Origin: Dehalococcoidia bacterium
Lineage (GTDB): Bacteria > Chloroflexota > Dehalococcoidia > Bin125
Assembly: GCA_965203995.1 (NCBI GenBank)
Contig: OZ241962.1
Coordinates: 1,092,782 to 1,156,781, forward strand
Direction of reading: 5' to 3'
DNA length: 64,000 nt
In this document: piece by piece, positions 2,959 to 55,228 of the stretch
Position numbering within the stretch: the first letter of the stretch is position 1
How the letters are laid out: each line of letters begins with the position of its first letter
The notes under the pieces: generated by a model
Seen by the model: only the letters and a program-made list of their open reading frames with translations
Databases searched by the model: none
What the model was told of the DNA's origin: nothing
Program-made: the position numbers and the translations under genes

Positions 2959-3186
2959 CTACAGGCTCGCGTAGACGGCGTCGATCATCGGCTTCCAGCG
3001 CGGATCCGCCCCGAGCCCGGCCGACATCTGGTTCATCACGTAGCCAAGCCCGATCCCGGCGTCAGGATCAGCAAAGCCCAGCGATCCGCCCGCTGAAAGG
3101 GAGGCAAAATCAGCACCAAGCGCACCCGGATCGCCAGGCCCATAGCTGCCCATTTCACTGGCAACTCCGCCTTCGTCGAGCAGCAA
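2959..3186 (-). pseudogene. Orphan 3'-terminal fragment of a beta-lactamase-like serine hydrolase gene (paralogous copy of the end of the 3599..4735 gene)
   Basis: About 135 bp (2958-3092) are ~93% identical to 3598-3732. The 75-aa frame ends ...GGSLGFADPDAGIGLGYVMNQMSAGLGADPRWKPMIDAVYASL like the intact gene but has no N-terminal catalytic part. Confidence 0.7.
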
Positions 3187-20884: not shown

Positions 20885-21658
20885 TCAGGCCCGAGTCAAA
20901 ATCTCCGCCGGACCGTCTTCGCGCAGTGCGACCGTGTGCTCAAAGTGAGCTGACAGACTGCCGTCCGCGGTGACGACGGTCCAGCCGTCGTCCAGCACGG
21001 CGGTCGCCGGATCACCGACGGTCGCCATCGGCTCAAGGGCAACGACCATCCCACGGCGCATGGTCATTCCGGAGCCTTGCCGACCATAGTTGGGCATGCT
21101 CGGCGGCTCGTGCATGTCACGCCCGACGCCATGCCCTACATATCCTCGGACTACTCCGTAACCCGCTGATTCTATCACTTCCTGAATCGCTGCTCCGATA
21201 TCACCTTTACGTACACCGACACGAGCCGCGGATATGCCCGCCGCCAGGGATTCCGAGGTCACATCCAGCAACCGCCGCGCCTCGGCCGAGATCGTCCCCA
21301 CGCCCTCCGTCCGCGCCGAATCGCCGACCCAACCGTCGATCGTCGCGCCCAGGTCAATCGTGAGGATGTCTCCTTCCTCCAGCACCCGCTCTGTCGCGAA
21401 GCCGTGCACGATCTCATCGTTCACGGACGCGCAGATTGTGTGCGGGAATCCCTGGTAACCCAGGAATGTGGGAATCACGTCCAGCCGTCCGAACTTGTCC
21501 AGCACATACCGGTCCAGCTCCGACAGCTTGCGGCCCGGCTTGACCATCTCAAACAGCTCGTTCAGTGTCTCGCCGACCATCTGCCCGGCCGGACGCATTT
21601 GCGCGATCTCGTCCTCGGTCTTGAGGATCACTTGCCGTGGTCGCTGCCCGTTCGCCAT
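20885..21658 (-). CDS. map: Type I methionine aminopeptidase
   Basis: LKTEDEIAQMRPAG ... metal-ligand D/D/H/E/E pattern. 257 aa. Confidence 0.9.
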   Translation of the reverse strand: MANGQRPRQVILKTEDEIAQMRPAGQMVGETLNELFEMVKPGRKLSELDRYVLDKFGRLDVIPTFLGYQGFPHTICASVNDEIVHGFATERVLEEGDILTIDLGATIDGWVGDSARTEGVGTISAEARRLLDVTSESLAAGISAARVGVRKGDIGAAIQEVIESAGYGVVRGYVGHGVGRDMHEPPSMPNYGRQGSGMTMRRGMVVALEPMATVGDPATAVLDDGWTVVTADGSLSAHFEHTVALREDGPAEILTRA

Positions 21659-21697: not shown

Positions 21698-22348
21698 CTA
21701 GTTGCCAATCGCCTCCAGCGCCGAGAGCAGATCCTGACCTACGGCCTCAGGCGACTGCTCGCCGTTGACCGTTGAGAGCTTGCCCGCCGCCGTGTAGTAG
21801 GCCACCAGCGGCTCGGTCTGGTCCGTATAGACCTGGAGCCGATTCGCGATCGCCTCCGGTTTGTCGTCGTCTCGCTGAATCATCTTGATCACGCCACAGC
21901 AGGGCTCCGATGGATCGGGCGGATTGAAGACCTCGTGAAACACGCTGCCGCAGGTGGCGCAGCTCACTCGACCGCCGAGGCGCCGCGTGATCTCCTCGTT
22001 CGAGACATCGATCAGCACCGTGACCGCGATCTCCTGGCCCTGGGCGGTCAGGGCCTCGTCCAGCGCGCGGGCCTGCTCAACTGTGCGAGGGAAGCCGTCG
22101 AACAGGCATCCGGCCCGCGCGTCGTCGCGGCCGATCCGCTCCAACAGCATGCCGATCGTGACATCGTCCGGCACGAGTTCGCCGGCGTCCATGTAAGTTT
22201 TGGCCAGGTTGCCCAGTTCGGTGCCGTTGCGCAGGTTCTCGCGGAACATGTCGCCGGTCGAAAGGTGCAGCAGACCAGTCCGTTCGGCGATCTGCACCGC
22301 CTGAGTACCCTTGCCCGCGCCCGGGGGTCCCAGCAGGATGACGTACAT
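21698..22348 (-). CDS. adk: Adenylate kinase (zinc-lid type)
   Basis: ILLGPPGAGKGTQA. Lid CATCGSVFH...PCCG Cys4. ORF extends to 22372. Confidence 0.9.
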   Translation of the reverse strand: MYVILLGPPGAGKGTQAVQIAERTGLLHLSTGDMFRENLRNGTELGNLAKTYMDAGELVPDDVTIGMLLERIGRDDARAGCLFDGFPRTVEQARALDEALTAQGQEIAVTVLIDVSNEEITRRLGGRVSCATCGSVFHEVFNPPDPSEPCCGVIKMIQRDDDKPEAIANRLQVYTDQTEPLVAYYTAAGKLSTVNGEQSPEAVGQDLLSALEAIGN

Positions 22349-22374
22349 GGTCTGGCGCTCGGTGTCTGACATGG

Positions 22375-24123
22375 CTAGCGAATAAACCCTTCGTAATTGC
22401 GCATCAGCAGTTGCGCTTCAATCTGTCGCATCGTGTCCAGCGCGACCCCGACAACGATCAGCAGGCCGGTCGAAGAGATCGTCAAGGCCGTGGAGTCGGG
22501 AATGAACTCCGTCGCCAGGAACGGAACCACCGCGACAAAGCCCAGGAACAGCGCTCCCGCCCAGGTGATCCGAGCCAGCACGCGGTTGATGTAGTCCTGC
22601 GTGGGACGGCCCGGCCGGATGCCGGGAATGAACCCGCCCTGCTTCTGCAGATTCTCGGCCAGGTTCTGTTGCTGGAAGGTGACGAACGTGTAGAAGAACG
22701 TGAACCCGACGACCAGCACGAACGAGAGCGCCCAATACGCCGGTCGTCCCGGCGAGAGATTCAACTGGACCCAATCGGCCACCCGAATGATCCAGCCTGG
22801 ACGCTCGCCCAGCGTCTGACCCTCGGCGATGTCCGGCGTCAACGGATTGTCGGCCGGATCCTCATGCGTCTTGATCTCCGAGACCGCGATGAAGTTGCCC
22901 TCGCGATCGGAGAGCCGGATCGGATCCTCGGAGATCTCGTTGGCATCGATACGCCAGGCATAGAGCGTCTCCTGCGTGGCCTGGATCGTCGTCGTCTCGA
23001 CCTGGGTCAGGACGTTGGCGTCGGAGTTGGAGTTGATCCGATCCAGTACGTCCTGGAACGTGTCCTCTTCCTTGTCCCACTCGACGATGCCTTCATTGAC
23101 CGTGAACTCGCCGGAGTCGTCCAGCTCGGGCAGCAGCGTGGCCAGCGGCTGCTCCACGTCATCACGAGTGAACGGCAGCTCGACTGCGACCTGGGTCTGC
23201 GCTTCCTCGCCCGCCGCTCCGGTCACCCAGCCGGCCAGGACGGAAGGGAAAATGATGATCGAGAAAGCGAAGATCAACGGGATCATGCCGGCCGAGTTCA
23301 CCCGCAGCGGGATGTAGGATTGACCGCTCTGGCGGTACATCCTCCCTCCGCGGAACACCGATCGGGCGTATTGAACGGGAATCCTCCGCTGCGCCTCCTG
23401 GAAGAACACGATCAGGGCAACGAGGGCGATCGCAATCGCGATCACCACGGCGATGCCCGACCAACCAATGTCGGACAGCCGCACCGAGTTGAACAGCGTG
23501 GGGAAGCTGGCCACGATCCCGGCGAAGATGATCAGCGAGATGCCGTTGCCGACGCCTTTCTCCGTGATCAGTTCGCCCAGCCAGATCAGGAACATGGTGC
23601 CGGCTGTCATCGTCATCAGCGCCGACAGCGTGGGCAGCCACTCTTCGGCGCCGAAGCCAATCCCGGTGATCGCCCGGGCATTCTCGAGCAGCAGCAACTG
23701 ACCGTAACCCTGCACCACCGACATCGGCACTGCCAGCCAGTAGGTGTAGAGCTGAATCCGGTTACGGCCCGACTCGCCTTCCTGCGCCAGCGCTTGCAGG
23801 CGCGGCACGACCGGTTGCATCAGGTTCATCACGATCGACGCCGTGATGTAGGGATAGACGCCCAGGGCGACGATCGACAGGTTGTCCAACCCGCCGCCCG
23901 AGAACAGATTGAGGAACCCAAGCACCGGATTGTTGTCCAGCGCGTTCTCGAGCTGGGTCTTGTTGATGTCGGGAATCGGGACATGCGCGACCAGCCGGAA
24001 CACGACCAGCATGGCCAGGGTGAACGCGACTTTCTGGCGAACGTCCGGCTGACGCCAGGCGTCGACCAGGGCCTGCAGCAGCTTAGGCCTCGTCGGCCCC
24101 GCCGCTGTCTGGGCTCTCTGCAT
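22375..24123 (-). CDS. secY: Preprotein translocase SecY (582 aa, with ~140-aa insertion in an external loop)
   Basis: LSIVALGVYPYITASIVMNL, GNGISLIIFAGIV and GGFIPGIRPGRPT hallmark segments. Insert lies between ...FPSVLAGWVTG and RPAYWALSFVLVV. Confidence 0.9.
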   Translation of the reverse strand: MQRAQTAAGPTRPKLLQALVDAWRQPDVRQKVAFTLAMLVVFRLVAHVPIPDINKTQLENALDNNPVLGFLNLFSGGGLDNLSIVALGVYPYITASIVMNLMQPVVPRLQALAQEGESGRNRIQLYTYWLAVPMSVVQGYGQLLLLENARAITGIGFGAEEWLPTLSALMTMTAGTMFLIWLGELITEKGVGNGISLIIFAGIVASFPTLFNSVRLSDIGWSGIAVVIAIAIALVALIVFFQEAQRRIPVQYARSVFRGGRMYRQSGQSYIPLRVNSAGMIPLIFAFSIIIFPSVLAGWVTGAAGEEAQTQVAVELPFTRDDVEQPLATLLPELDDSGEFTVNEGIVEWDKEEDTFQDVLDRINSNSDANVLTQVETTTIQATQETLYAWRIDANEISEDPIRLSDREGNFIAVSEIKTHEDPADNPLTPDIAEGQTLGERPGWIIRVADWVQLNLSPGRPAYWALSFVLVVGFTFFYTFVTFQQQNLAENLQKQGGFIPGIRPGRPTQDYINRVLARITWAGALFLGFVAVVPFLATEFIPDSTALTISSTGLLIVVGVALDTMRQIEAQLLMRNYEGFIR

Positions 24124-24768: not shown

Positions 24769-25380
24769 CTACTCGCTCGTTCCGGCGGCAGCGAGTTCGG
24801 CCTCTGGCGCCTCGGATTGCTCAACAGGCTCGGCCGCCGGCTCGTCGGGCACGCGGCCGGCCAGCCGCAGACGCTCGCGCCTTACCTGGACCGGATCGCG
24901 CAGTTGCTCGAGGGCACGCAGCGTGGCCTGAACCACGTTGACCACGTTGTTCGAACCCAGCGACTTGGACAGCACGTTGCGCAGTCCCGCCGCCTCCAGG
25001 ACGGCACGTACACCGCCGCCGGCGATCACACCGGTCCCGGGCGCCGCCGGCTTGAGCAGCACCTGCGACGCGCAGAATCGCGCAGTGATCGGATGGGGAA
25101 TCGTGCCATTGCGAATCGGCACGCTGACCATCTCACGCCTGGCAATCGTCGAACCCTTGCGAATCGCGTCCGGGACCTCGTTCGCCCGGCCAATCCCGAT
25201 GCCCACGCGCCCGGCGCCGTCGCCGACCACGACGACCGAGGTGAATGAGAACCGTCGACCGCCCTTGACCACCTTGGCCACGCGCGAGACCGCGACGACC
25301 TTTTCGATAATGTCGTCCTGCGGCTCGTCGCGGTCACGGCGGCGGCCTCTGCCGCGTCCGCCGTCTCGCTGTTGCACCAT
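24769..25380 (-). CDS. rpsE: 30S ribosomal protein S5
   Basis: [29 protein letters not shown]. Confidence 0.95.
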
Positions 25381-38144: not shown

Positions 38145-39065
38145 TCAGACGCCTGCATACGAGTGCAACCCCGTGATCCACAGATTCACGCCCAAATAGG
38201 TGAACATCACAGCGAAGAAGCCCAGTACCACGATCCATGCCTTGCGCGACCCGCGAAACAGCCGCAGCCAGCGACCATGGATGTAGACCGCAAAGATCAA
38301 CCAGGTCACCAGCGCCGCCGTCTCCTTCGGATCCCAGCCCCAGTAGCGACCCCAAGCGTCGTTCGCCCAGAACGCTCCCAGGGCAATCCCCGCCCCGAGC
38401 AAGGGAAATCCCACCAGCACGGCGCGATAGGTCAGCTCGTCGCATCGTTCCTCGGATGGCAACCAGGCATAGCGTCCGCCACGTTCCGCCCCCGCGTCCG
38501 GAAACCCTTGCAGCAGATGCATGGCCGCCCCGCCGAATGCCACTGCCAGCACCGCGTACGAGAGGATCATCAACGCCACGTGAATCGTCAGCAGAGTCGG
38601 ACTTTGCAGGGCCGGCACCAGGATCTCCTGCCCCTCGCTGGGAAACGCCAGCGCCGACCCGTACAGCCCGCAGGCGACCGGCAACACGAACGCCCCCGGC
38701 AACCTCGTCCCCGACCTCAGCTCGAAGATGCCGTAGAGCAGTACGATCGCAATGCCGAACGCCATGGAGAACTCAAACAGGTTGCTGTACGGCGCGTGAT
38801 TCAGCGCCACCGTGCGCATCACCAGACCGACAATCCCCAGTACCGCCGCCGTCCACACGCTCAGCGTCGCTACTCCGCCCAGTGTCGGCGAACGCAGCGG
38901 CGCCGGTTCCGCAGTGCCGAACGAGGATGGTTCCGTGGCAAGCACCCGCCGCGGCGCCCAGCCCAGCCGCAGCTTCGGTTGCACGGCGTACACCACGTAG
39001 GTCAGCGCCGCGCAGCCGGCCGCGACGAAACTCGCCCAGAGCATGAACAGGGCGCCGTCAGCCAT
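38145..39065 (-). CDS. ccsA: Cytochrome c-type biogenesis protein CcsA/ResC (system II heme handling)
   Basis: WWD-domain signature WGRYWGWDPKETAALVTWLIFAVYIHGR. Multi-TM. 306 aa. Confidence 0.85.
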   Translation of the reverse strand: MADGALFMLWASFVAAGCAALTYVVYAVQPKLRLGWAPRRVLATEPSSFGTAEPAPLRSPTLGGVATLSVWTAAVLGIVGLVMRTVALNHAPYSNLFEFSMAFGIAIVLLYGIFELRSGTRLPGAFVLPVACGLYGSALAFPSEGQEILVPALQSPTLLTIHVALMILSYAVLAVAFGGAAMHLLQGFPDAGAERGGRYAWLPSEERCDELTYRAVLVGFPLLGAGIALGAFWANDAWGRYWGWDPKETAALVTWLIFAVYIHGRWLRLFRGSRKAWIVVLGFFAVMFTYLGVNLWITGLHSYAGV

Positions 39066-39861
39066 CGCGATCCCGCTCCGATTCCTCGGCCTTCGCCTCA
39101 GCGCGCAGCGCGTCTGCTCGGCGTGGCGGCTGCGACCCGCCGAAGGTCAGACGGCGGAACCCCTCGGCCCAAGGCACCCGCCCTGCCCGTGCCGCCTGCT
39201 CCGATCGACGCTGCATCCGCTTCGCCATCTCGTCGCGATTTGCCGCCTGCACCTGAGAGGCATGGCGCAGCAGCGCGTCGATCCTGCGGTCCTGCTGGTC
39301 CGAGACATCGACAAAGAAGTTCGCTTCATTGCTGCCTGCGAGCAGCACCGTGTTCACCCGTACGGGTTCAACGCCGCTCGCCACCTGCTCCGCATACGAG
39401 TTCGCGTTGCGCGACAGCGGGAACACCGCATCCAGCGCCGCAATCCCTACCGTTCGGTGATCGCGATGGTTGAACCCTCGATACCCGTCCCACGTGATCA
39501 TGAGCTCGGGCCGTACTTCACGCAGCACACGGACCATTTGTCCACGAAACTCCGAGCCGTCCTCAACGTGTCCGTCCGGTACGCGCAGAAAGATGCAGCG
39601 CTTGATCCCCAGCTCCCTCGCCGCCGCCTCCTGCTCGGCCTCGCGCAGCGCCCCCAAGTCGGCCGGACCGAGCTTGGGATCCTTCGTCCCCTTGTCACCA
39701 CTCGTGACCAGGCAGAAGGTCACATCCCAACCCTCGTCCGAGAGCTGCGCAACCGTGCCGCCGCAGGTGAACTCGATATCGTCCGGGTGCGCCATCACGA
39801 CCAGCGCCCGCCGTGTTTCCGCAGCCGTCTCGGCGTCTGGCATCTCGACTCCTCGACCCAA
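39058..39861 (-). CDS. PIG-L/LmbE-family N-acetylglucosaminyl deacetylase (MshB/BshB-like)
   Basis: AHPDDIEFTCGG (HPDDE-type) and downstream H-x-D-H (FNHRDHRTVG) zinc-ligand motifs. 267 aa. 8-nt overlap with ccsA. Confidence 0.75.
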   Translation of the reverse strand: MGRGVEMPDAETAAETRRALVVMAHPDDIEFTCGGTVAQLSDEGWDVTFCLVTSGDKGTKDPKLGPADLGALREAEQEAAARELGIKRCIFLRVPDGHVEDGSEFRGQMVRVLREVRPELMITWDGYRGFNHRDHRTVGIAALDAVFPLSRNANSYAEQVASGVEPVRVNTVLLAGSNEANFFVDVSDQQDRRIDALLRHASQVQAANRDEMAKRMQRRSEQAARAGRVPWAEGFRRLTFGGSQPPRRADALRAEAKAEESERDRDG

Positions 39862-39873
39862 ACTGCAGCGAAA

Positions 39874-41175
39874 TCAGCTCGCCGCCACCAGCAGCGATTC
39901 TGCCGGATCCGGACAGCACGACTCCCGCTGCCAATCCGACATCGCCCGTTCGCGCAGCAGAGCCTCGTAAACATCCAGAATACTGGCGGCCACGCATTGC
40001 CAGGAGTACACGGACATCGCGTTTGCTGCAGCCCCGCCCATCCGGACTCTCAACGGCTCATCCGAGAGCAATCGCCCGATGGCCGAAGCAAACTGCTCGG
40101 GCCTTCGCTGCGACACCAGCATCCCCGTCCTCCCATGCGCGATCGTGCTCGCCAGGCCGCCTACACGGGTCGCCACCGCCGGCGTTCCCGAAGCCATCGC
40201 TTCGACCGCGACCAATCCAAACGACTCATATGCGGACGGCACCGCACAGACGCTTGCCGCCCGGTACAGGTCCGGCAACTGCTCACGTCCGACCGCATTG
40301 ACGAAGCGCACTCGGCCGCCGACGCCGCCGTCCTCGGCGAGCTGTCGCAAGCGCGATCGCTCCGCTTCGTCCCGTTCGTCACCGCCCACGATCCACAGCG
40401 TGGCGTCGGGCCGCGCCTCAATCATCGGCAGCGCCTGGACCAGCAGGTCGACTCCCTTGGCCGGCTCCAACCGTCCCACGAACAGGATTCCGGGACCATC
40501 GAAAACACCCAGCTCCGGCAACGCCTCGGCCACGCGTCGCCGCGCCGCCTTCAGCCCGTTCGGGTGGAACTTCTCCAGGTCCAAACCGCAAGGGACGACC
40601 TGTACTCGCGACGCTTCCGCGCCATACTGGCCGATCAGGAATGCTCGTTCATGCGAAGTCGCGCCAATCACCACGTCGGCACAGTTCACCACACGGCGTT
40701 CGCCCGCGATCCGATACTGCGGCTCCGGTTGCTGGAACATCTGCTTAACCGCGCCCAGCGTGTGGAACATCGCGGCGTGCGGAATCTGCCATCGCCGGGC
40801 CAACTCAATGCCGCTCAGGCCGGATACCCAATAGTGAGAATGCACCAAGTCGTAACCGCCGCCGCGTTGCGTGACTTCGGCAACGCCGTCGGTGAACTCC
40901 GAGACATGCCCGGCTACCTCCATCGGCGTCAACGGCGCCGTCGGTCCCGCCGCGACGTGGAACAGGCGCACGCCCGGCGCGAGCTCCTCAACGAGCGGCG
41001 CGTCCACCCGATCGCGCCGGGTGAACACATCAACCTCCCAGCCAAGCCGTCCCAACTGGCGGGACAGCTCAGCGACATACACGTTCATTCCGCCGGCCTT
41101 GGTTGTACCCGCCCGGGCCAACGGAGATGTATGCGTCGAAATCACGGCCAGACGCCGCTGCGGCCGCAACATCAC
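39874..41175 (-). CDS. GT4-family retaining glycosyltransferase, MshA/BshA-like
   Basis: N-terminus ISTHTSPLARAGTTKAGGMNVYVAELSRQLG resembles MshA-type N-domains. C-terminal GT4 E-x7-E region (ESFGLVAVEAMASGTPAV). 433 aa. Confidence 0.8.
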   Translation of the reverse strand: MMLRPQRRLAVISTHTSPLARAGTTKAGGMNVYVAELSRQLGRLGWEVDVFTRRDRVDAPLVEELAPGVRLFHVAAGPTAPLTPMEVAGHVSEFTDGVAEVTQRGGGYDLVHSHYWVSGLSGIELARRWQIPHAAMFHTLGAVKQMFQQPEPQYRIAGERRVVNCADVVIGATSHERAFLIGQYGAEASRVQVVPCGLDLEKFHPNGLKAARRRVAEALPELGVFDGPGILFVGRLEPAKGVDLLVQALPMIEARPDATLWIVGGDERDEAERSRLRQLAEDGGVGGRVRFVNAVGREQLPDLYRAASVCAVPSAYESFGLVAVEAMASGTPAVATRVGGLASTIAHGRTGMLVSQRRPEQFASAIGRLLSDEPLRVRMGGAAANAMSVYSWQCVAASILDVYEALLRERAMSDWQRESCCPDPAESLLVAAS

Positions 41176-42162
41176 TCGCCCTCCCGAGTGAGTCGCATCC
41201 GGCGCACCACAGCGTCGCGGCCGCCCAGTTCATACTTGTATGGCTCGTCACCGCGCAGGAAGTTCACGCTCGACATCCCCCGCTCAACCGCATCTCGAAT
41301 GCACAGCACTTTCGATCCCAGCCCGGCCGACAGCTCCCGGAACTTAGGATCGTAGCCACTGTTGTACAGCAGCAGCTGATTTCGAGCCACGAAGCACAAC
41401 ACCATCGCCGCCGCCTCGCCCGAAATCGACATCACATATAGCCGCAGCAAACCGGCCTCGGACAGCGATCCTGTCAGGCGCTTGAAAAATGCGCGCATCT
41501 CGTCGGTCAGGAAGACCGCCTTGTCGCCTCGCGAGTCGGCCATCATCGCTATGAACTCCGGCATCCGCCCGGCGACCTCGTCGGGCGTCTCCGCCGCTTC
41601 GAACGCGACAGCGCCGCGCAACTGCCGCAACGGTCGCAGCTTGCGCCGCACCTCACGACGATCACGCGATCGCAGATTCGCCACGTAATCGTCCCATCCG
41701 TGCCCGATCTCGACGGTGGGACAGACCGCCTCGTCCGAGACATCCAGCCGCCAGCCACGTCCGATCGCGACCGCAAAGGCGTCCACCCAGGCCGATCCGG
41801 GCTCGAGACCTCGGAACTCCGCTGTCAGCGCGCCCGCATCCTCCAGACGATCCAAGACCGCCTCCGCCAGCGCGGGTTCTTGTCCCCGCATCGCCGTCGG
41901 ACCCAGGTAATCTGAGACTTCATGATCGCCGGCAAATGACCAGTGCGTACCGCAGCGCTTGAGCGGCGCCAGTCCGACCAGTTCTCCGGAACCGTTCTCG
42001 AGGCCCAGCAACTCGACCTCGGCCGTGCTCGACTCACCAAACACCGACCACCAGGCTTGTCCAAACTCCGGCGTCGAGAACGGCATCGCCTCGGCCGAGC
42101 GGCTCAATGCGCTCCAGCGCTCGCTCAGTTCGGCGAACCCCCCGCGTACGACCGTCAGACTC
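41172..42162 (-). CDS. CelD/BioF2-like GNAT-fold acyltransferase (Acetyltransf_6/FemAB-like superfamily)
   Basis: FSTPEFGQAWWSVFG...LYNSGYDPKFRELSAGLGSKVLCIRDAVERGMSSVNFLRGDEPYKYELGG matches the CelD-like GNAT architecture. The track ORF (to 42503) overlaps folE. GTG at 42160-42162 overlaps the folE stop (GTGA). Confidence 0.65.
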
Positions 42163-49141: not shown

Positions 49142-50248
49142 TCAACCAGGCAACCCCCGCCCGGCTTCCCGCCGCGTCCAGGCCGCATCGATCCCCGCCA
49201 GCATGCCACCGCTAACCAACGAGTGCCCACCCATCATCACCGTCGAATCCTCCAACATCGACACCAGTCCCCGCATCCGCTGATCTGTGATTTGCTCCGA
49301 GCAGCCGAGATCGGCCCAGAACCGGTCGCAGCGCGAGATGTCCCAGCCGAGGTGAGACTGGAACGGCCGCGTGTCCCAGATCATTGCGTCGCCCATCCCC
49401 TCCAGCGCCAGAAGAAATCCGTCCCGACCACCCCACTCGAACAGCTCGCCCAAAAGGGACCGCGCCCGGCGCCGACGGGTTCGCATGCCCCGTTCCTCCG
49501 ACAGCACCCTCACGCGACAAGAGGTGTCGCGATCCACGACCGCCCAGTCGGATCCGCTGACCCGGCCCGCAATCATCAATTCTCCGTCACGGCGGGTCAT
49601 CACGTCGAAGACCTTCAACGCTTGCTGTACCGACTCATCTAGCTCTGGCCAGTTGGATAGCGCAGCGGCGGTGGCAGCGCCAAGCTCCATCGATGCGACG
49701 CTCAATGCAGCCTTCAGCACCGTCAGGTCTGCCGGCGTATCCACGTCCAGCAGTGACCGCGCCGATCGGGCGAACGACTGAACCCTCACCTCCGTACGGT
49801 CCCGGACGAGTAAGGCAAAGCGGTTGTCGACCGGCTCACCGGCCAGGCTCTTCAAAAGCCCCCCATCCGGTACACCAATCCAGTCACATGAAAACATGCG
49901 ATTCGCCGTCGCATGTCCCGATTCGATCGTCCCGCGAACCGCCGACCAGTCTTCGGCGGTCATCGCTGGCATCCCCGAACCTGCGTAACAGACTGGTCCG
50001 GCCGTATCACCCGACGCCGTCGCCACGATGTCCCCGATCGACTGGTCCGCACGCGTCGCTTCGACCGCTAGGTCGGCAATCGATTCGCTGGCAAACACCC
50101 GCACGCGGTCGAACCCGGCTTCACGCGCGCGCGCCGCCGTATCTTGCAACACCGCACTCCGCACCTCATTGACCATCCGCACCGGAACACAGTCTTCCGC
50201 AAGTGGGCGATGGCACAGCCAGAACTCCGAGGGTCGCGTCCCCGACAT
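49142..50248 (-). CDS. Hypothetical protein with possible MobA/CofC-like nucleotidyltransferase N-domain plus uncharacterised C-domain
   Basis: DVDTPADLTVLKAAL resembles the [DN]V[DN]TPxxL motif of MobA-like NTP transferases. The ~150-aa C-terminal part has no recognisable motif. Start placed at MSGTRPSEF just after the comF stop. Confidence 0.4.
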   Translation of the reverse strand: MSGTRPSEFWLCHRPLAEDCVPVRMVNEVRSAVLQDTAARAREAGFDRVRVFASESIADLAVEATRADQSIGDIVATASGDTAGPVCYAGSGMPAMTAEDWSAVRGTIESGHATANRMFSCDWIGVPDGGLLKSLAGEPVDNRFALLVRDRTEVRVQSFARSARSLLDVDTPADLTVLKAALSVASMELGAATAAALSNWPELDESVQQALKVFDVMTRRDGELMIAGRVSGSDWAVVDRDTSCRVRVLSEERGMRTRRRRARSLLGELFEWGGRDGFLLALEGMGDAMIWDTRPFQSHLGWDISRCDRFWADLGCSEQITDQRMRGLVSMLEDSTVMMGGHSLVSGGMLAGIDAAWTRREAGRGLPG

Positions 50249-50249
50249 G

Positions 50250-50990
50250 TCAGTGCGCCCGCGCCGCTGTCCAGGCATCAACCACTCGCGCTCCGGCCGC
50301 CAGCAGCGTGCGCGCCGCCTCCGACAGAGTCGACATCGTCGTCGCCACGTCATCCACCAGCAGCACGCCGCGCCCGGCGACGCGGTCTTCCCTGGCCGCG
50401 AACGCGCCCCGTACGATCCGTGACCGATCCGCCCGTGACGCCGCCTGCGCTTGCCGCGGACCCCACCAACCCCTCCGCCTCAGGGCGGCAGCGTCCAGGT
50501 CCAGGCCCGTCCGAGATGCGACGGCCCGAGCCAGGTACTCCGCCTGGTTCCCGCCGCGCCGCCGCCGGCGCAGCAGCGGGATCGGAATCGGCACGACCAT
50601 GTCGATGTCGTCGGCGGCCCGAATCTCCCCCGACAGTTCCACCAGCTCTTCCGCCAGTCCCACGACGCCGCGATGCTTCAACGCCAGCACCGCCGCCCGC
50701 GCCGGACCGTCGTAGACAATCCCGGAGCGCAGCTCACGCACGGCCAGCGCCTTCGAATGGCACTCGCGGCAGACCGGCGAGTCCGACGCCAGCCAGCAGT
50801 GACGGCAGCGCCGACCATCTGCTTGCCGCATCAATATCCGACAAGCCAGGCAGATCAGCGAGCCCGGCGCCCCGCAGGAGACACAGTGAGACGGCAACGC
50901 AAGGTCAATCAACGCCCCTGCAGCGGCCTTGGCCAACTCGCTCGACCGATACACTGCCTTCATGAGCCTCACCGTACAACTCTTCGCCAA
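50250..50990 (-). CDS. ComF-family protein (ComFC-like phosphoribosyltransferase domain protein)
   Basis: N-terminal Cys4 (CVSCGAPG...CRHCW...CREC) and PRTase motif VLLVDDVATTMSTL. 246 aa. Confidence 0.8.
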   Translation of the reverse strand: MAKSCTVRLMKAVYRSSELAKAAAGALIDLALPSHCVSCGAPGSLICLACRILMRQADGRRCRHCWLASDSPVCRECHSKALAVRELRSGIVYDGPARAAVLALKHRGVVGLAEELVELSGEIRAADDIDMVVPIPIPLLRRRRRGGNQAEYLARAVASRTGLDLDAAALRRRGWWGPRQAQAASRADRSRIVRGAFAAREDRVAGRGVLLVDDVATTMSTLSEAARTLLAAGARVVDAWTAARAH

Positions 50991-51666
50991 CCTCGCCGAG
51001 TCCTGCGGGACGCGACAGGTCGAACTCAGCGACCTGCCTCAGCCGCTCACCGCACGGCAGGTCATGGACGCCTTCATCGGTCGCTTTCCGCATGTCGGTC
51101 CGATGCGAGACTCGATCATGTTCGCCGTCAATGCCGAGTACGTCTCGCCTGACCATCCTGTCTGCCTGGCCGACGAAGTCGCCCTGATCCCGCCGGTCAG
51201 TGGCGGGGCAACAGACGACCCATTCTTCAAAATCACTCGAGCCGAGCTCGATCCCAGCGAGTTACACGGCCTCGTGCTCTCCAATCAGGCCGGAGCGGTC
51301 TCACTCTTCCTCGGCGTCGTGCGTAACAACAACCTGGGCCGTGAGGTCGATTACCTCGAGTACGACGCTTACCCGGCTATGGCCACGAAGGTCATGCGCC
51401 AGATTGCCGGTGAGATTCGCCAGCGTTGGGACGTGCTCGAGATAGCCATGCACCACCGCATTGGACGCCTCGAGATCGGCGAAGCCTCCGTCGCTGTAGC
51501 CGTCGCCTCGGCCCACCGCTCCGAGGGCATCGAGGCCTGCCATTACGGGATCGACCGGCTCAAGGCCATCGTCCCGATCTGGAAGAAAGAAGTCTGGGCG
51601 GACGGCGAAGAGTGGATCGAAGGCTCGCTCACCCCCGCCGCGGAGATCGACGCCGCTTCTGATTGA
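50962..51666 (+). CDS. Molybdopterin synthase MoaD-MoaE fusion protein
   Basis: ThiS/MoaD-like N-domain ending ...EVALIPPVSGG. MoaE-like C-domain HRIGRLEIGEASVAVAVASAHRSEGIEACHYGIDRLKAIVPIWKKE. Confidence 0.8.
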   Translation: MSLTVQLFANLAESCGTRQVELSDLPQPLTARQVMDAFIGRFPHVGPMRDSIMFAVNAEYVSPDHPVCLADEVALIPPVSGGATDDPFFKITRAELDPSELHGLVLSNQAGAVSLFLGVVRNNNLGREVDYLEYDAYPAMATKVMRQIAGEIRQRWDVLEIAMHHRIGRLEIGEASVAVAVASAHRSEGIEACHYGIDRLKAIVPIWKKEVWADGEEWIEGSLTPAAEIDAASD

Positions 51667-53026
51667 TCACCATCGCCGGCTGATCGGTCCGATAGTCCTT
51701 CGCCTTGACGTACTGCACAGTGCCCCGCTGACTATCCAGCAAGCGCGACGCCAGCCTTGGGTCCAAACTCTCAGGCGCCACGTTTGTCGTGATCAACGTT
51801 GGCGCTCGACGCAGGTATCGCGAAGCGCAGAGCTGGTACAGCTTCTCGCTCGCCCACTCCGTTGACTGGTGAGCCCCCAAGTCGTCCAGCACGAGCAGAT
51901 CGACATCCTTGAGCCAGGCGAAGATCGCCTCGAACGACGCCTCCCCTTCGTCGCGATACGAAGCGCGCAGCGCATCCAGCAGCTCCGGTACCACGGCGAA
52001 GCAGACGCGGTCGCCGGCGGCAAGCCGGTCGTTCGCCGCAGCCGCCGCCAGGTGCGTTTTACCCACGCCGGTGCCGCCGATCAAGGTCATCCAGCCCGCC
52101 GGCTGCTCTGCCCAGGCCACCACTAGCGACTTCGCACCAGGCAGATTCTCCGCGTCGCCACGGCCGCCTAGCCCCTGCTCGCGGAAGTTGTCGAACGTGT
52201 ACTGGGCAAGCACCAACTCCGACATCCCGCCGTACTCCCGATAACGCGCTCCCGGCGACGACTCAGCCAGCTCCAGTCGCGCGACGTCGAGCGTCAGGAA
52301 TGATTGCAAGCCGATCGCCGACAGGTCGGCCGTCTCCGCCACCAACACTGTCCGGCGACCGGTGTTGCGCCGGTGGTTGAGCAACTGGAACAGCTTCTCG
52401 CGAGCCCAGTCGGTGGGCGAGATGCAATCCAGGTCGTCCAGGATCAGGAACGGCGCGTCGCGCACGTGCTCGAACAGCAAAGCGAACGAGAAGTCGCCCC
52501 CGCTTGATGCGTTCATCGCCGCACGCAGCCGATCCAGCAGATCGGCGGTGACGAAGTACAGCGCCGCCCGTCCTTCCGCGATCCGTCGATTCGCCATCTC
52601 CGCCGACAACCGCGTTCGTCCCGATCCCGCGGCCCCAGTCAACACCAGCCAGCCCGGTTCCTCGTCGGGCGCGTCGGCGAAGGCGCAGGCCGCCGCCGCA
52701 GACTCGCTTGACGTATCTGCAGCGTCCAAGCGCGCGTCCGAAAGCGGACCGAGATTGCTCAGACGCTGCAGGCGTGCCGCCTCCCTCGCTTCCTGTTCCA
52801 GACGCCGGCACTCGCAGGGCTGCACGCGACCGAACTCTGGATCGCCGACCGGCCGTGATACGCGCACATAGCCCGCTCCGCCACAGATGTCGCAGTCAGC
52901 AGAGCCGTCACGCGTCCAGAGGGAGTCGTCGCGCTCCAGCTCCTCTTCAGTCTCGGAAGAGGTGCCGGTAGCGCGACGACTCCAGTCCGCCAGCAGCGGT
53001 CCCAGCCGTTGCATCTCCGCCATCGC
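51629..53026 (-). CDS. Tandem AAA+ DnaC/DnaI(IstB)-like helicase loader with N-terminal Cys-rich module
   Basis: N-terminus CDICGGAGYV...QPCEC. Domain 1: LVLTGAAGSGRTRL (Walker A K->R) and FLILDDLD. Domain 2: YTFDNF...LIGGTGVGKTHLAAAAA and LLVLDDLG. Track ORF to 53239. Start chosen at 53026 (M72) or 53014 (M75), overlapping the dnaD-like gene by ~70-80 nt. Confidence 0.7.
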   Translation of the reverse strand, partial: AMAEMQRLGPLLADWSRRATGTSSETEEELERDDSLWTRDGSADCDICGGAGYVRVSRPVGDPEFGRVQPCECRRLEQEAREAARLQRLSNLGPLSDARLDAADTSSESAAAACAFADAPDEEPGWLVLTGAAGSGRTRLSAEMANRRIAEGRAALYFVTADLLDRLRAAMNASSGGDFSFALLFEHVRDAPFLILDDLDCISPTDWAREKLFQLLNHRRNTGRRTVLVAETADLSAIGLQSFLTLDVARLELAESSPGARYREYGGMSELVLAQYTFDNFREQGLGGRGDAENLPGAKSLVVAWAEQPAGWMTLIGGTGVGKTHLAAAAANDRLAAGDRVCFAVVPELLDALRASYRDEGEASFEAIFAWLKDVDLLVLDDLGAHQSTEWASEKLYQLCASRYLRRAPTLITTNVAPESLDPRLASRLLDSQRGTVQYVKAKDYRTDQPAMVINQKRRRSPRRG

Positions 53027-53636
53027 GTCCCTCCGTCTCCCAGCGCTCGAGGATGGCCCGCGCATAACGCCAGCTGTGCGCATTGTTGGCCGCGGCTTCG
53101 ACGAAGGCGTCATGCAGCCAATCGGTGCCGTAACGCGCCTCTGCCGCCTTGAGCTCCTCCGCCAGAATCGGCGGCATTGGTGTCCCAAACGCACTCTGCC
53201 AGATCTCGGGCGCCGTGCCGTAAACCGCCTCCCGCCCATGTACCCGAGCAGAGTCGGGAGGCATTGGAGCCGACGCCATCGCCCTGCGGCCGTCCGCGTC
53301 GTTCAACGCCAGCCACTCAACCCATCGGCCTGCCGACTGCGCTCGACCAATCAACAACGACCCACGCCGGATCGCGGCTGATAGTCCCTGCTCGAACGCC
53401 TCGTTGACCTCCCGATCCACGCACATGCCGGCAAGCGCCTCAATCAGCGGCCGCTCTTCTCGCAAACCGGCCGTCGACACCCGCCTCGGAAACCGGCGTT
53501 GTCGACCAATCGCCTCAACAGCGAACAGCGTCACAATCAGCTCCGCAGGGTCACTCATCGCAGGCGCCAGGTCCCGTAACAGCGCCTGCGGCAGCGGCGT
53601 CACCGGAGCGCCCGAGGGAAATCCGTCGAAATCCAT
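52947..53636 (-). CDS. DnaD-domain replication initiation/helicase-loading accessory protein (DnaD/DnaB2-like)
   Basis: C-terminal DnaD-type motif LAEELKAAEARYGTDWLHDAFVEAAANNAHSWRYARAILERW. ATG overlaps the dnaB stop (ATGA). Confidence 0.6.
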   Translation of the reverse strand: MDFDGFPSGAPVTPLPQALLRDLAPAMSDPAELIVTLFAVEAIGRQRRFPRRVSTAGLREERPLIEALAGMCVDREVNEAFEQGLSAAIRRGSLLIGRAQSAGRWVEWLALNDADGRRAMASAPMPPDSARVHGREAVYGTAPEIWQSAFGTPMPPILAEELKAAEARYGTDWLHDAFVEAAANNAHSWRYARAILERWETEGRDGGDATAGTAAGGLESSRYRHLFRD

Positions 53637-55123
53637 CAGAACTCGCCCACTCCCGGTTCAGGCTGCGCATAGAAGTCCTCAAACTTGGCGATCGTCGAGA
53701 CGAAACGCACATCCACACGACCCACTGCGCCATGCCGATGCTTGGCCACGAGCAACTGCGCGACTTCATGGTCGCCCATTCGCGAGGCGTCGCTGACCAG
53801 GTCGTCCTGGTAATCGTCGCGGTCGTACATGTCCTCTCGGTAGATGAAAATCACTACGTCGGCGTCCTGCTCAATCGAGCCGCTTTCACGCAGGTCCGAC
53901 AGTTGCGGCACCGGCGGATGCCGACGCTCCACCGCCCTCGACAGCTGCGAGAGGGCCAGGATCGGCACCTGTAGCTCGCGGGCAATCTCTTTCAACGTGC
54001 GGGAGATCAGAGAGATCTCGCTGACCCGGTTCGTGTCCGACTGCGCTCGTGCCCAACCGTGTACGAGCTGAATGTGATCAACGATGATCAGCCCCAGACC
54101 TGCCCGCTCGTCGCCCTGTCTGTGCGCCCGCTCCTGGAGACGCGTGTGCAGATTCCGCGACTTCGCCCGGATCTCCGCCAGCGACTGACCCGCCGTGTCG
54201 TCGATGTAGATCTCCGCCCGGCTCAGCAGCCCGATCGCCTGCGAAATCCTGGCGCCCTGGTCTTCCGTATGCCGACCCAACCGAAGCCGCGAGTGCTCGA
54301 CGCCCGATTCCGCCGAGACCAGACGCGCCGCCACCTGCTCGGCCGACATCTCCAGGGAGAAAATCGCCACCGGCAGCGTCTGACCGATCGCCGCGTTGCG
54401 CGCCACCGTGAGCGCCAGCGCCGACTTGCCGACCGAGGGTCGCGCCGCCAGCACGACCAGGTCCGAGGCGTGCATCCCTTCGTTGAGCAGCGTGTCCAGA
54501 TCGGTGAAGCCCGTCCGCGTCGGTCCGTCGACGCCGAGTCCCGACTCGCCCTCTTCGCCCAACACGTCGCTGAGCAGATCCTCCAGGACACGGAAGTCCT
54601 GCCGCCGATCCGCGCCGCGAATGCCGTACAGAATCTCGACTGCCCGAGTCAGCGATTCACCCACATTCGGGTCCGCCTGGTAGGCCAGTTCGCCAATCTC
54701 GCCCGCCGCGCGGATCATGTCCCGATACGTCGCCGACCGCTGCACCAGCCGCGCGTAGTGTTCGGCACCGACCGTGGCCGGCAGTTCATAGACAAGCTGG
54801 TTCAGATACGCCTGGCCGCCCGCCTCCTGCAGGCGGCCCTGGTTCGATAGATCGGCCGCCACCGTGATCTGGTCGATCGCCTCATAACGCTCAAACACCG
54901 CCACGACCGCCGCGAAGATCGCTCGGTGACGCGGATCCATGAAGTCGTTCGGTTCCAGCATCCCCGCCAGGCGCTCGTACACGCCCGGTTCGGCCAGGAT
55001 CGCGCCCAACACCGACTCCTCCGCCGCCTGGTCGTGCGGCACTCCACGAGGCGCCGACCGCCCCCGCCCATTCGGCCCACCCGCTTGCGCCTGCTCGTCA
55101 TATGTCGGATCAGAGGAGACCAT
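53636..55123 (-). CDS. dnaB: Replicative DNA helicase DnaB
   Basis: ESVLGAILAEP N-domain. Walker A ARPSVGKSALALTVA. RecA-like H2-H4 motifs. ORF extends to 55168. Confidence 0.93.
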   Translation of the reverse strand: MVSSDPTYDEQAQAGGPNGRGRSAPRGVPHDQAAEESVLGAILAEPGVYERLAGMLEPNDFMDPRHRAIFAAVVAVFERYEAIDQITVAADLSNQGRLQEAGGQAYLNQLVYELPATVGAEHYARLVQRSATYRDMIRAAGEIGELAYQADPNVGESLTRAVEILYGIRGADRRQDFRVLEDLLSDVLGEEGESGLGVDGPTRTGFTDLDTLLNEGMHASDLVVLAARPSVGKSALALTVARNAAIGQTLPVAIFSLEMSAEQVAARLVSAESGVEHSRLRLGRHTEDQGARISQAIGLLSRAEIYIDDTAGQSLAEIRAKSRNLHTRLQERAHRQGDERAGLGLIIVDHIQLVHGWARAQSDTNRVSEISLISRTLKEIARELQVPILALSQLSRAVERRHPPVPQLSDLRESGSIEQDADVVIFIYREDMYDRDDYQDDLVSDASRMGDHEVAQLLVAKHRHGAVGRVDVRFVSTIAKFEDFYAQPEPGVGEF

Positions 55124-55228
55124 CAACGGCCTCCCCACGATCAACATCCCGTGAGAACCCGGACACACAACTGGCGGACGGCCAGCGAATCGGAATCTGT
55201 CTCAGGACTGCAGGACAGAAACGCGCGC

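Follow-up and report, generated by a model that had tools for sequence, protein, structure and literature searches.

The SecY/Sec61 channel is among the most conserved of membrane machines, and its outer face is normally near bare, the helpers that act at the exit of the channel being separate proteins. Such exit-side proteins include PpiD/YfgM, the P1 periplasmic domains of SecDF and YidC, and PrsA-like foldases, and loop L7 of Sec61-alpha is a contact site of BiP. Loop L7 of Sec61 couples the movement of transmembrane helices (TM) 7 and 8, and mutations in L7 delay channel gating (PMC3164448). Folding machinery on the outside of a bacterial Sec system has been described in Mycoplasma pneumoniae, where a PrsA-like 'dome' sits on SecYEG-SecDF (bioRxiv 10.1101/2025.04.25.650208). 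In flagella, the channel through which unfolded subunits are exported has FliD as a plate at its exit (PMC7316729). In this study, we analyzed the secY gene in a window of 64,000 nucleotides from a Dehalococcoidia bacterium (GCA_965203995.1, contig OZ241962.1, positions 1,092,782-1,156,781; all coordinates below are those of the window), whose product carries a large additional domain in an outer loop next to its lateral gate, the one that corresponds to L7. The explanation that we consider best as a whole, with a probability of roughly 0.6, is that this protein is a SecY with a selected FliD-head-like insert serving as an exit-side accessory of the translocon.

The gene (22375..24123, minus strand; 582 codons plus stop) encodes a 582-residue protein that is the housekeeping SecY of the spc operon. 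The protein matched the Pfam SecY family PF00344 with 330.6 bits (cut-off 32.2), the match being split into two stretches, and the NCBIfam equivalog TIGR00967 with 351 bits (cut-off 253.6) over the full length of the model (positions 1-414 of 414). An accessory SecY2 identity was ruled out by both SecY2 equivalogs scoring under their cut-offs (NF009082, 158.5 bits versus 353; TIGR02920, 153.5 versus 249.6). Ten hydrophobic helices were apparent from hydropathy and from an AlphaFold 2 (AF2) model, and the model has the 10-TM SecY fold, with target-normalised TM-scores of 0.77-0.78 to 5aww_Y, 2zjs_Y and 5nco_g (0.77 for 5aww_Y, the Thermus thermophilus SecY). In addition, the gene order rplO-secY-adk-map is the one in which the spc operon canonically ends, and the identical order was found in a relative, L080.

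Alignment with solved SecY structures delimited the additional sequence. SecY residues 1-302 (23218..24123, minus strand), which contain TM1-TM7, the plug region and the C4 loop according to the AF2 helices, align with residues 7-284 of SecYs in the PDB, and residues 448-582 (22378..22782, minus strand), which contain TM8-TM10 and the C5 loop (GGFIPGIRPGRPT), align with residues 291-424. For the Geobacillus SecY 5eul_Y, the two blocks correspond to query residues 21-299 and 449-582, and between them lie 6 residues in 5eul_Y versus 149 in the window SecY, a net insertion of ~143 amino acids. The insert accordingly occupies residues 303-447 (22783..23217, minus strand) of the TM7-TM8 (P4/L7) extracytoplasmic loop; it is missing from the solved SecYs and from 58 relatives and is present in 21 genomes. 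Compared with the nearest relatives, the insert-free Dehalococcoidia SecYs, the indel proper spans residues ~305-443 (22795-23211, minus strand). Hydropathy and the AF2 helices place it between TM7 (280-302) and TM8 (461-496), with conserved flanks at residues 290-302 (IIFPSVLAGWVTG) and 460-479 (RPAYWALSFVLVVGFTFFYT), and the whole TM7-TM8 loop has ~165 residues here versus ~25 in the short Dehalococcoidia forms. The 157 residues separating the flanks include 35 aspartates and glutamates versus 9 lysines and arginines and have no hydrophobic stretch. We infer that the insert domain is extracytoplasmic because SecY has its N-terminus inside and 10 TMs, the neighbouring loops follow the positive-inside pattern, and the insert itself has a net charge of approximately -26.

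These analyses bear out the original prediction, which had been made from the sequence of the window. Its length of 582 amino acids for the SecY encoded at 22375-24123 holds, and its coordinates for the insertion, 22775-23225, are right, as they correspond to residues ~300-450. The placement in an extracytoplasmic TM7-TM8 loop agrees with the split Pfam match, the 5eul_Y alignment and the gap in the relatives, and the description of an acidic, hydrophilic segment of ~140 residues agrees with the charge count above. The prediction had also presumed a folded external domain, and a fold was indeed predicted by AF2 with a predicted local distance difference test score (pLDDT) of 80-93. The identity of that domain as a FliD-head or Flagellin_IN type, which is described next, is an addition to the earlier reading.

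On the basis of the AF2 models and the comparisons that follow, we identify the insert as a single FliD-head/Flagellin_IN-type beta domain of ~110 residues plus a conserved return linker of ~30 residues. In the model of full-length SecY, which was built from a 121-sequence alignment, confidence was highest inside the insert, with block means of 82-92 for residues 311-420. A model of the insert alone, built from 36 diverse inserts, had pLDDT values of 80-93 at its residues 10-110 and the same secondary structure as in the full-length model. Along the chain, the domain has one strand followed by a pair of short helices, then a beta-hairpin, an alpha-helix and three long strands, and it closes with a short helix; the folded domain spans residues ~309-417 (22873..23199, minus strand). 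Its beta fold is of the type found in the D2/D3 head of FliD: the top eight Foldseek matches were all FliD or flagellin, and in a fold search with the full-length model FliD chains were the sole recurring matches other than SecY/Sec61.

Sequence intermediates point in the same direction. An exhaustive phmmer search of the 145-residue insert against 1.84 billion representatives retrieved, beyond SecYs, 10 proteins with E-values of 1.7e-8 to 6e-4, each of which matched in several stretches. Seven of the 10 were covered by a Pfam scan, in which two passed Flagellin_IN (PF07196), namely P0129 (phmmer E = 1.7e-8) with seven stretches and P0133 (E = 1.6e-6) with nine, and one, P0137, was a genuine FliD with FliD_N and FliD_C domains encoded in a flaG-fliD-fliS operon. 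Insert residues 337-383 align with residues 876-922 of P0129, where Pfam places a Flagellin_IN stretch at 881-926, the insert segment SGEFTVNEGIVEWDKEEDTFQDVLDRINSNSDANV aligning onto the Flagellin_IN repeat unit. The whole unit of ~81 residues aligns to the head region of the FliD P0137, and comparison of the insert profile with this genuine FliD by hhalign gave a probability of 94.5% and E = 8e-8 over FliD residues 244-324. The Flagellin_IN-like motif of the insert, residues 337-383 (SGEFTVNEGIVEWDKEEDTFQDVLDRINSNSDANVLTQV...; 22975..23115, minus strand), was located by BLASTP and hidden Markov model alignments and contains invariant G340, N345, N366 and V373. The Flagellin_IN signature consists of a G-x-F-x-(V/I)-N hairpin and, after the helix, an Ile-Asn ('IN') pair. 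G340, F342 and N345 are all present, and the 'IN' asparagine (RIN366) is invariant across the 36 diverse inserts. The Flagellin_IN relationship is thus supported independently by sequence intermediates, by signature residues and by predicted fold. Other Pfam families gave nothing meaningful, either for the insert alone or for the 36 inserts.

The closest non-SecY relatives of the insert, P0129-P0136, represent a likely pool of donors for it. These are giant extracellular proteins (958-2452 amino acids) composed of 4-15 tandem Flagellin_IN-like units of ~100 residues each. The gene for P0129 has a non-flagellar context, lying between genes for a glutaminase, a cytochrome c and a Ser/Thr kinase. 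An identity as FliD was also considered for the whole window protein and rejected, as there was no FliD_N or FliD_C match in SecY and the gene lies in the spc operon rather than a flagellar one. With the D0/D1 legs absent, only the head-type module is shared with FliD.

The resemblance to FliD heads raises the question of self-association. Inserts that associated as FliD heads do could cluster SecY channels or form a small cap-like chamber above them, and the fold matched is that of FliD D2-D3, whose heads pack into 4-, 5- or 6-membered rings; crystals of isolated FliD heads contain tetramers, pentamers and hexamers (PMC7316729). However, FliD rings use D2 and D3 of adjoining subunits, whereas the insert has a single domain, and a single SecY copy suffices for translocation in E. 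coli (PMC3432775). We therefore regard a role as an oligomerisation scaffold as highly improbable.

To determine how widely the insert occurs, we scanned a single genome for each GTDB species and obtained 79 SecY loci, all from Chloroflexota or Dehalococcoidia metagenome-assembled genomes (MAGs). The 79 loci split cleanly into 21 SecYs of 581-584 residues and 58 of 443-467 residues. The latter, all insert-free Dehalococcoidia SecYs, are 56-67% identical to the window SecY. The 21 assemblies with the long form are independent, include complete chromosomes and have the reading frame intact. A full-length protein search added further long forms, such that ~97 insert-bearing sequences or clusters could be aligned. 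On 399 columns outside the insert, the insert-bearing sequences formed one split in 200 of 200 neighbour-joining bootstraps, which indicates a single acquisition, with the bearers forming one monophyletic clade of uncultured Dehalococcoidia (Chloroflexota). One insert-bearing homologue, P0103, has 779 residues and is longer than the others; it comes from a 3.4-kb contig of the Joint Genome Institute (JGI) and aligns with 73% of the query at 69% identity. The excess length probably arose because the start was mis-called or because the gene was joined to that for L15 upstream of it, and does not represent an additional domain.

Within this clade the insert changes faster than the rest of SecY, although both are constrained. 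In pairs whose SecY core is at least 93% identical and whose synonymous divergence is unsaturated, the ratio of nonsynonymous to synonymous substitution rates (dN/dS) was 0.04-0.16 for the insert versus 0.007-0.06 for the core. Insert identity falls to 43-46% at core identities of 82-85%. By these codon comparisons, the insert is kept in frame under purifying selection. The original prediction had named a frameshift or duplication artefact as a possible source of the extra residues, and none was found, the frame being intact in 21 genomes and the insert under purifying selection. It had also raised the possibility that the insert occurs throughout the lineage. The insert is clade-wide but not universal in the lineage, 58 of the closest other Dehalococcoidia SecYs being without it.

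The same data leave next to no room for an artefact or a selfish element, be it a frameshifted or mis-assembled gene, a stretch duplicated internally, an intein or the remnant of a mobile element, and we give such explanations a negligible probability. That the region can be mis-called was seen in word-indexed and profile searches with the insert only, which returned only six short, frameshifted fragments from ENA. These gene calls (P0001-P0006; 121-259 residues, on contigs of 6-68 kb) are in frame through the insert and then out of frame. They evidently come from indel-ridden assemblies, probably of long reads, in which secY was split into fragments, and they call for caution in automated secY annotation. 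Nevertheless, the frame is intact at 581-584 residues in the 21 independent assemblies, purifying selection acts on it, the GC content of the insert equals that of its flanks, a search around the gene found no repeats flanking it, and the insert is unlike the rest of SecY. An intein was considered and rejected: there is no conserved Cys/Ser at the N-junction and no C-terminal His-Asn plus Cys/Ser/Thr, the junction residues are variable (TG/VG/SG...AAGEE; ...R.AD W), no intein Pfam match was obtained, and the fold is FliD-like, not HINT. Frameshift, mis-assembly, duplication and recent transfer were likewise ruled out by the frame, the selection, the GC match and the absent repeats.

Several insert-bearing MAGs have sponge-metagenome bin names (SB0664, RHO3, COS3), and the SB06xx series is among listed sponge-associated bins (PMC7883664). 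Possibly, the domain binds a glycan, an S-layer or a cell-wall component, as an anchor for the translocon or for adhesion to the sponge matrix. Heparin is bound by the FliD of Campylobacter jejuni (PMC7316729), and fifth among the Foldseek matches ranks 2zbi, a cell-surface flagellin from Sphingomonas A1 that belongs to an alginate-binding surface system (PMC9751261). We nonetheless consider binding to the envelope or host matrix to be quite improbable. The heparin binding of C. jejuni FliD has been tentatively placed in its extra D4 domain and not in D2-D3 (PMC7316729), a domain of 15 kDa that is held close to the membrane is ill-placed for reaching a host matrix, and no conserved surface patch was identified on the insert. 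In addition, the clade contains a more divergent insert-bearing member from a JGI metagenome of unverified habitat.

Conservation is unevenly distributed over the insert. In the alignment of 97 sequences residues 321-336 vary most, and the IN-motif and the sheet take a middle position. The most conserved part is the C-terminal linker, residues 418-447 (THEDPADNPLTPDIAEGQTLGERPGWIIR; 22783..22872, minus strand), with a mean majority frequency of 0.75 versus 0.55-0.69 elsewhere in the insert and with invariant T431, E436, G437, Q438 and G441. The next invariant residue, R449, is just beyond the end of the linker in the approach to TM8. The linker was modelled with pLDDT values of ~73-77 within full-length SecY versus <50 when the insert was modelled alone, and this higher confidence in the SecY context suggests that it packs on the SecY body. 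Elsewhere on the outer face, clade-diagnostic changes were found around the plug (F62L, A78G and A85V; residues 62-86, window 23866-23940) and in the TM9-TM10 outer loop, which has a one-residue insertion, F540, together with P542 and S544 (residues 538-543, window 22495-22512). These changes could be lineage drift or, as they weakly suggest, co-adaptation of the outer face to the new domain.

A number of our results weigh against a selected FliD-head-like accessory. The Pfam Flagellin_IN model did not match the window insert at E <= 10 or any of the 36 inserts at E <= 1, and a PDB sequence search with the insert profile did not find FliD, giving matches at chance level only (E = 0.1-0.3). Because these searches miss the insert, its homology to Flagellin_IN/FliD must be considered remote, resting on sequence intermediates and fold. 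Furthermore, the conserved residues inside the domain are mostly generic, fold-determining Flagellin_IN positions (G.F.VN, DTF..IN, ANV.T, GNF), and the surface of the domain evolves ~5 times faster than the SecY core, such that a passenger or spacer would fit these two observations as well as a binding module would. The main rival explanation is indeed a tolerated passenger domain: a Flagellin_IN module, prone to nested insertion, that settled in a permissive outer loop, plays no part in translocation and is selected only for foldability and frame so that the essential channel is not jammed. The occurrence of this type of domain nested in other proteins, in the FliD head and in the giant repeat proteins, is in keeping with that explanation, which we rate as somewhat unlikely on balance. 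The insert has not been lost in any of the 21 species-level genomes or in the ~97 protein clusters, even with insert identity down to ~41-45%, and the invariant EGQ..G motif of the linker lies outside the FliD-like fold. Moreover, the insertion site is the gating loop whose perturbation has phenotypes in Sec61 (PMC3164448), so a neutral insertion of 140 residues is not the default expectation at this position.

It is because of the role of L7 in Sec61 gating that we prefer an exit-side accessory module, although this specific function is proposed by analogy and tentatively, at somewhat less than even odds. Under this proposal, the conserved linker would find its docking site on SecY's outer face, and the FliD-like domain would present, next to the pore and the gate, a surface for contacts with emerging unfolded chains or extracytoplasmic partners. 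Additionally, or instead, the domain might bias the dynamics of the gate. The position of FliD as an exit plate is an attractive parallel, but one that is suggestive only.

A bolder version of the accessory proposal would have the co-opted flagellar-cap-type domain form an integral extracytoplasmic lid or holdase at the pore exit and lateral gate, possibly self-associating, which receives emerging unfolded chains or seals and tunes the channel. This version appears unlikely to us at present. If it were true, the insert would be a covalent counterpart of the separate exit-side chaperones, and the exits of the Sec and flagellar export systems would be functionally convergent. A corollary of the location of the insert concerns the assembly of SecY itself. 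In E. coli, SecA is required for the translocation of long periplasmic loops, and by E. coli rules the biogenesis of SecY in this clade would therefore involve the export of an acidic loop of 140 residues via SecA and pre-existing translocons.

The genes surrounding secY are all on the minus strand. Directly upstream is rplO, encoding ribosomal protein L15 (24083..24574; TIGR01071, 138 bits), and downstream are adk (21698-22372; NF001380, 265.8 bits) and map (20885-21658; TIGR00500, 271.4 bits). The rplO open reading frame (ORF) runs to 24083, and as the annotated ATG of secY lies at 24123, the genes share 41 nucleotides. No such overlap exists in L080, a more distant relative, where L15 ends at 2989 and secY starts at 3017. 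The annotated secY start (24123) is probably correct, since the N-terminus MQRAQTAAGPTRPKLLQ is conserved in 21 of 21 insert-bearing loci. Elsewhere in the window, ribosomal protein S5 (24769-25380, minus strand) has 203 residues, with an Arg/Gly-rich N-terminal extension and an acidic C-terminal tail, compared to a bacterial norm of ~165. A 536-residue protein is encoded next to the replicative helicase DnaB (51629-53239 and 53636-55168, respectively, both minus strand) and is unusually long for a DnaC/DnaI-type loader; its residues 384-490 form an IstB/DnaC-like AAA+ module, and another AAA-type region lies at 182-300. Two further ORFs, of 403 residues (49142-50353, minus strand) and 770 residues (39043-41355, plus strand), had no Pfam match at E <= 1e-5. 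The latter may be spurious, as ORFs on the opposite strand overlap it and the sequence here has 63% GC.

Comparison with known systems shows both how ordinary and how unusual this SecY is. In its channel, plug region, C4 and C5 loops and operon position it is like the canonical SecYs of T. thermophilus (5aww), Geobacillus thermodenitrificans (5eul) and E. coli, whereas their TM7-TM8 loops have a few to ~25 residues and that of the window SecY has ~165 with a folded domain. We therefore regard it as a canonical translocon into which a novel domain has been inserted. Full-text literature searches found no description of such an insertion in any SecY or Sec61, and the insert-bearing proteins carry only the name "preprotein translocase subunit SecY" at NCBI; since the public entries are so named, the feature appears to have been unremarked so far. 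The TM7-TM8 loop tolerates an insertion of 15 kDa, maintained clade-wide, and these SecYs are a natural experiment on the coupling of the L7/P4 loop to lateral-gate dynamics, as well as a possible case of a built-in extracytoplasmic chaperone or dock.

The nearest positional counterpart is the lumenal loop L7 of Sec61-alpha, which is the same TM7-TM8 connector and is comparatively long and structured (PMC3164448). However, L7 of Sec61-alpha consists of ~40 residues with a mini-helix, whereas the insert is an independent beta domain of ~110 residues, unrelated to it in sequence and fold. The nearest counterparts in fold differ in architecture. FliD (HAP2) belongs to the flagellar type III system and has two head domains, D2-D3, on coiled-coil D0/D1 legs, and the insert is a single domain without legs that forms part of a Sec membrane protein. 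The Flagellin_IN repeat proteins, its closest sequence relatives outside SecY, are soluble or secreted and contain tandem arrays of 4-15 units each, compared to one copy in SecY; with the insert, the known range of the Flagellin_IN/FliD-head module extends past flagella and giant surface proteins. The nearest counterpart in concept is the PrsA-like dome of M. pneumoniae, with which the insert shares the idea of a folded extracytoplasmic mass at the exit of the translocon (bioRxiv 10.1101/2025.04.25.650208). Whereas that dome, PpiD/YfgM and the P1 domains of SecDF and YidC are separate polypeptides whose folds are of the foldase or another type, the SecY insert is covalently part of the channel protein and has a flagellar-type fold.

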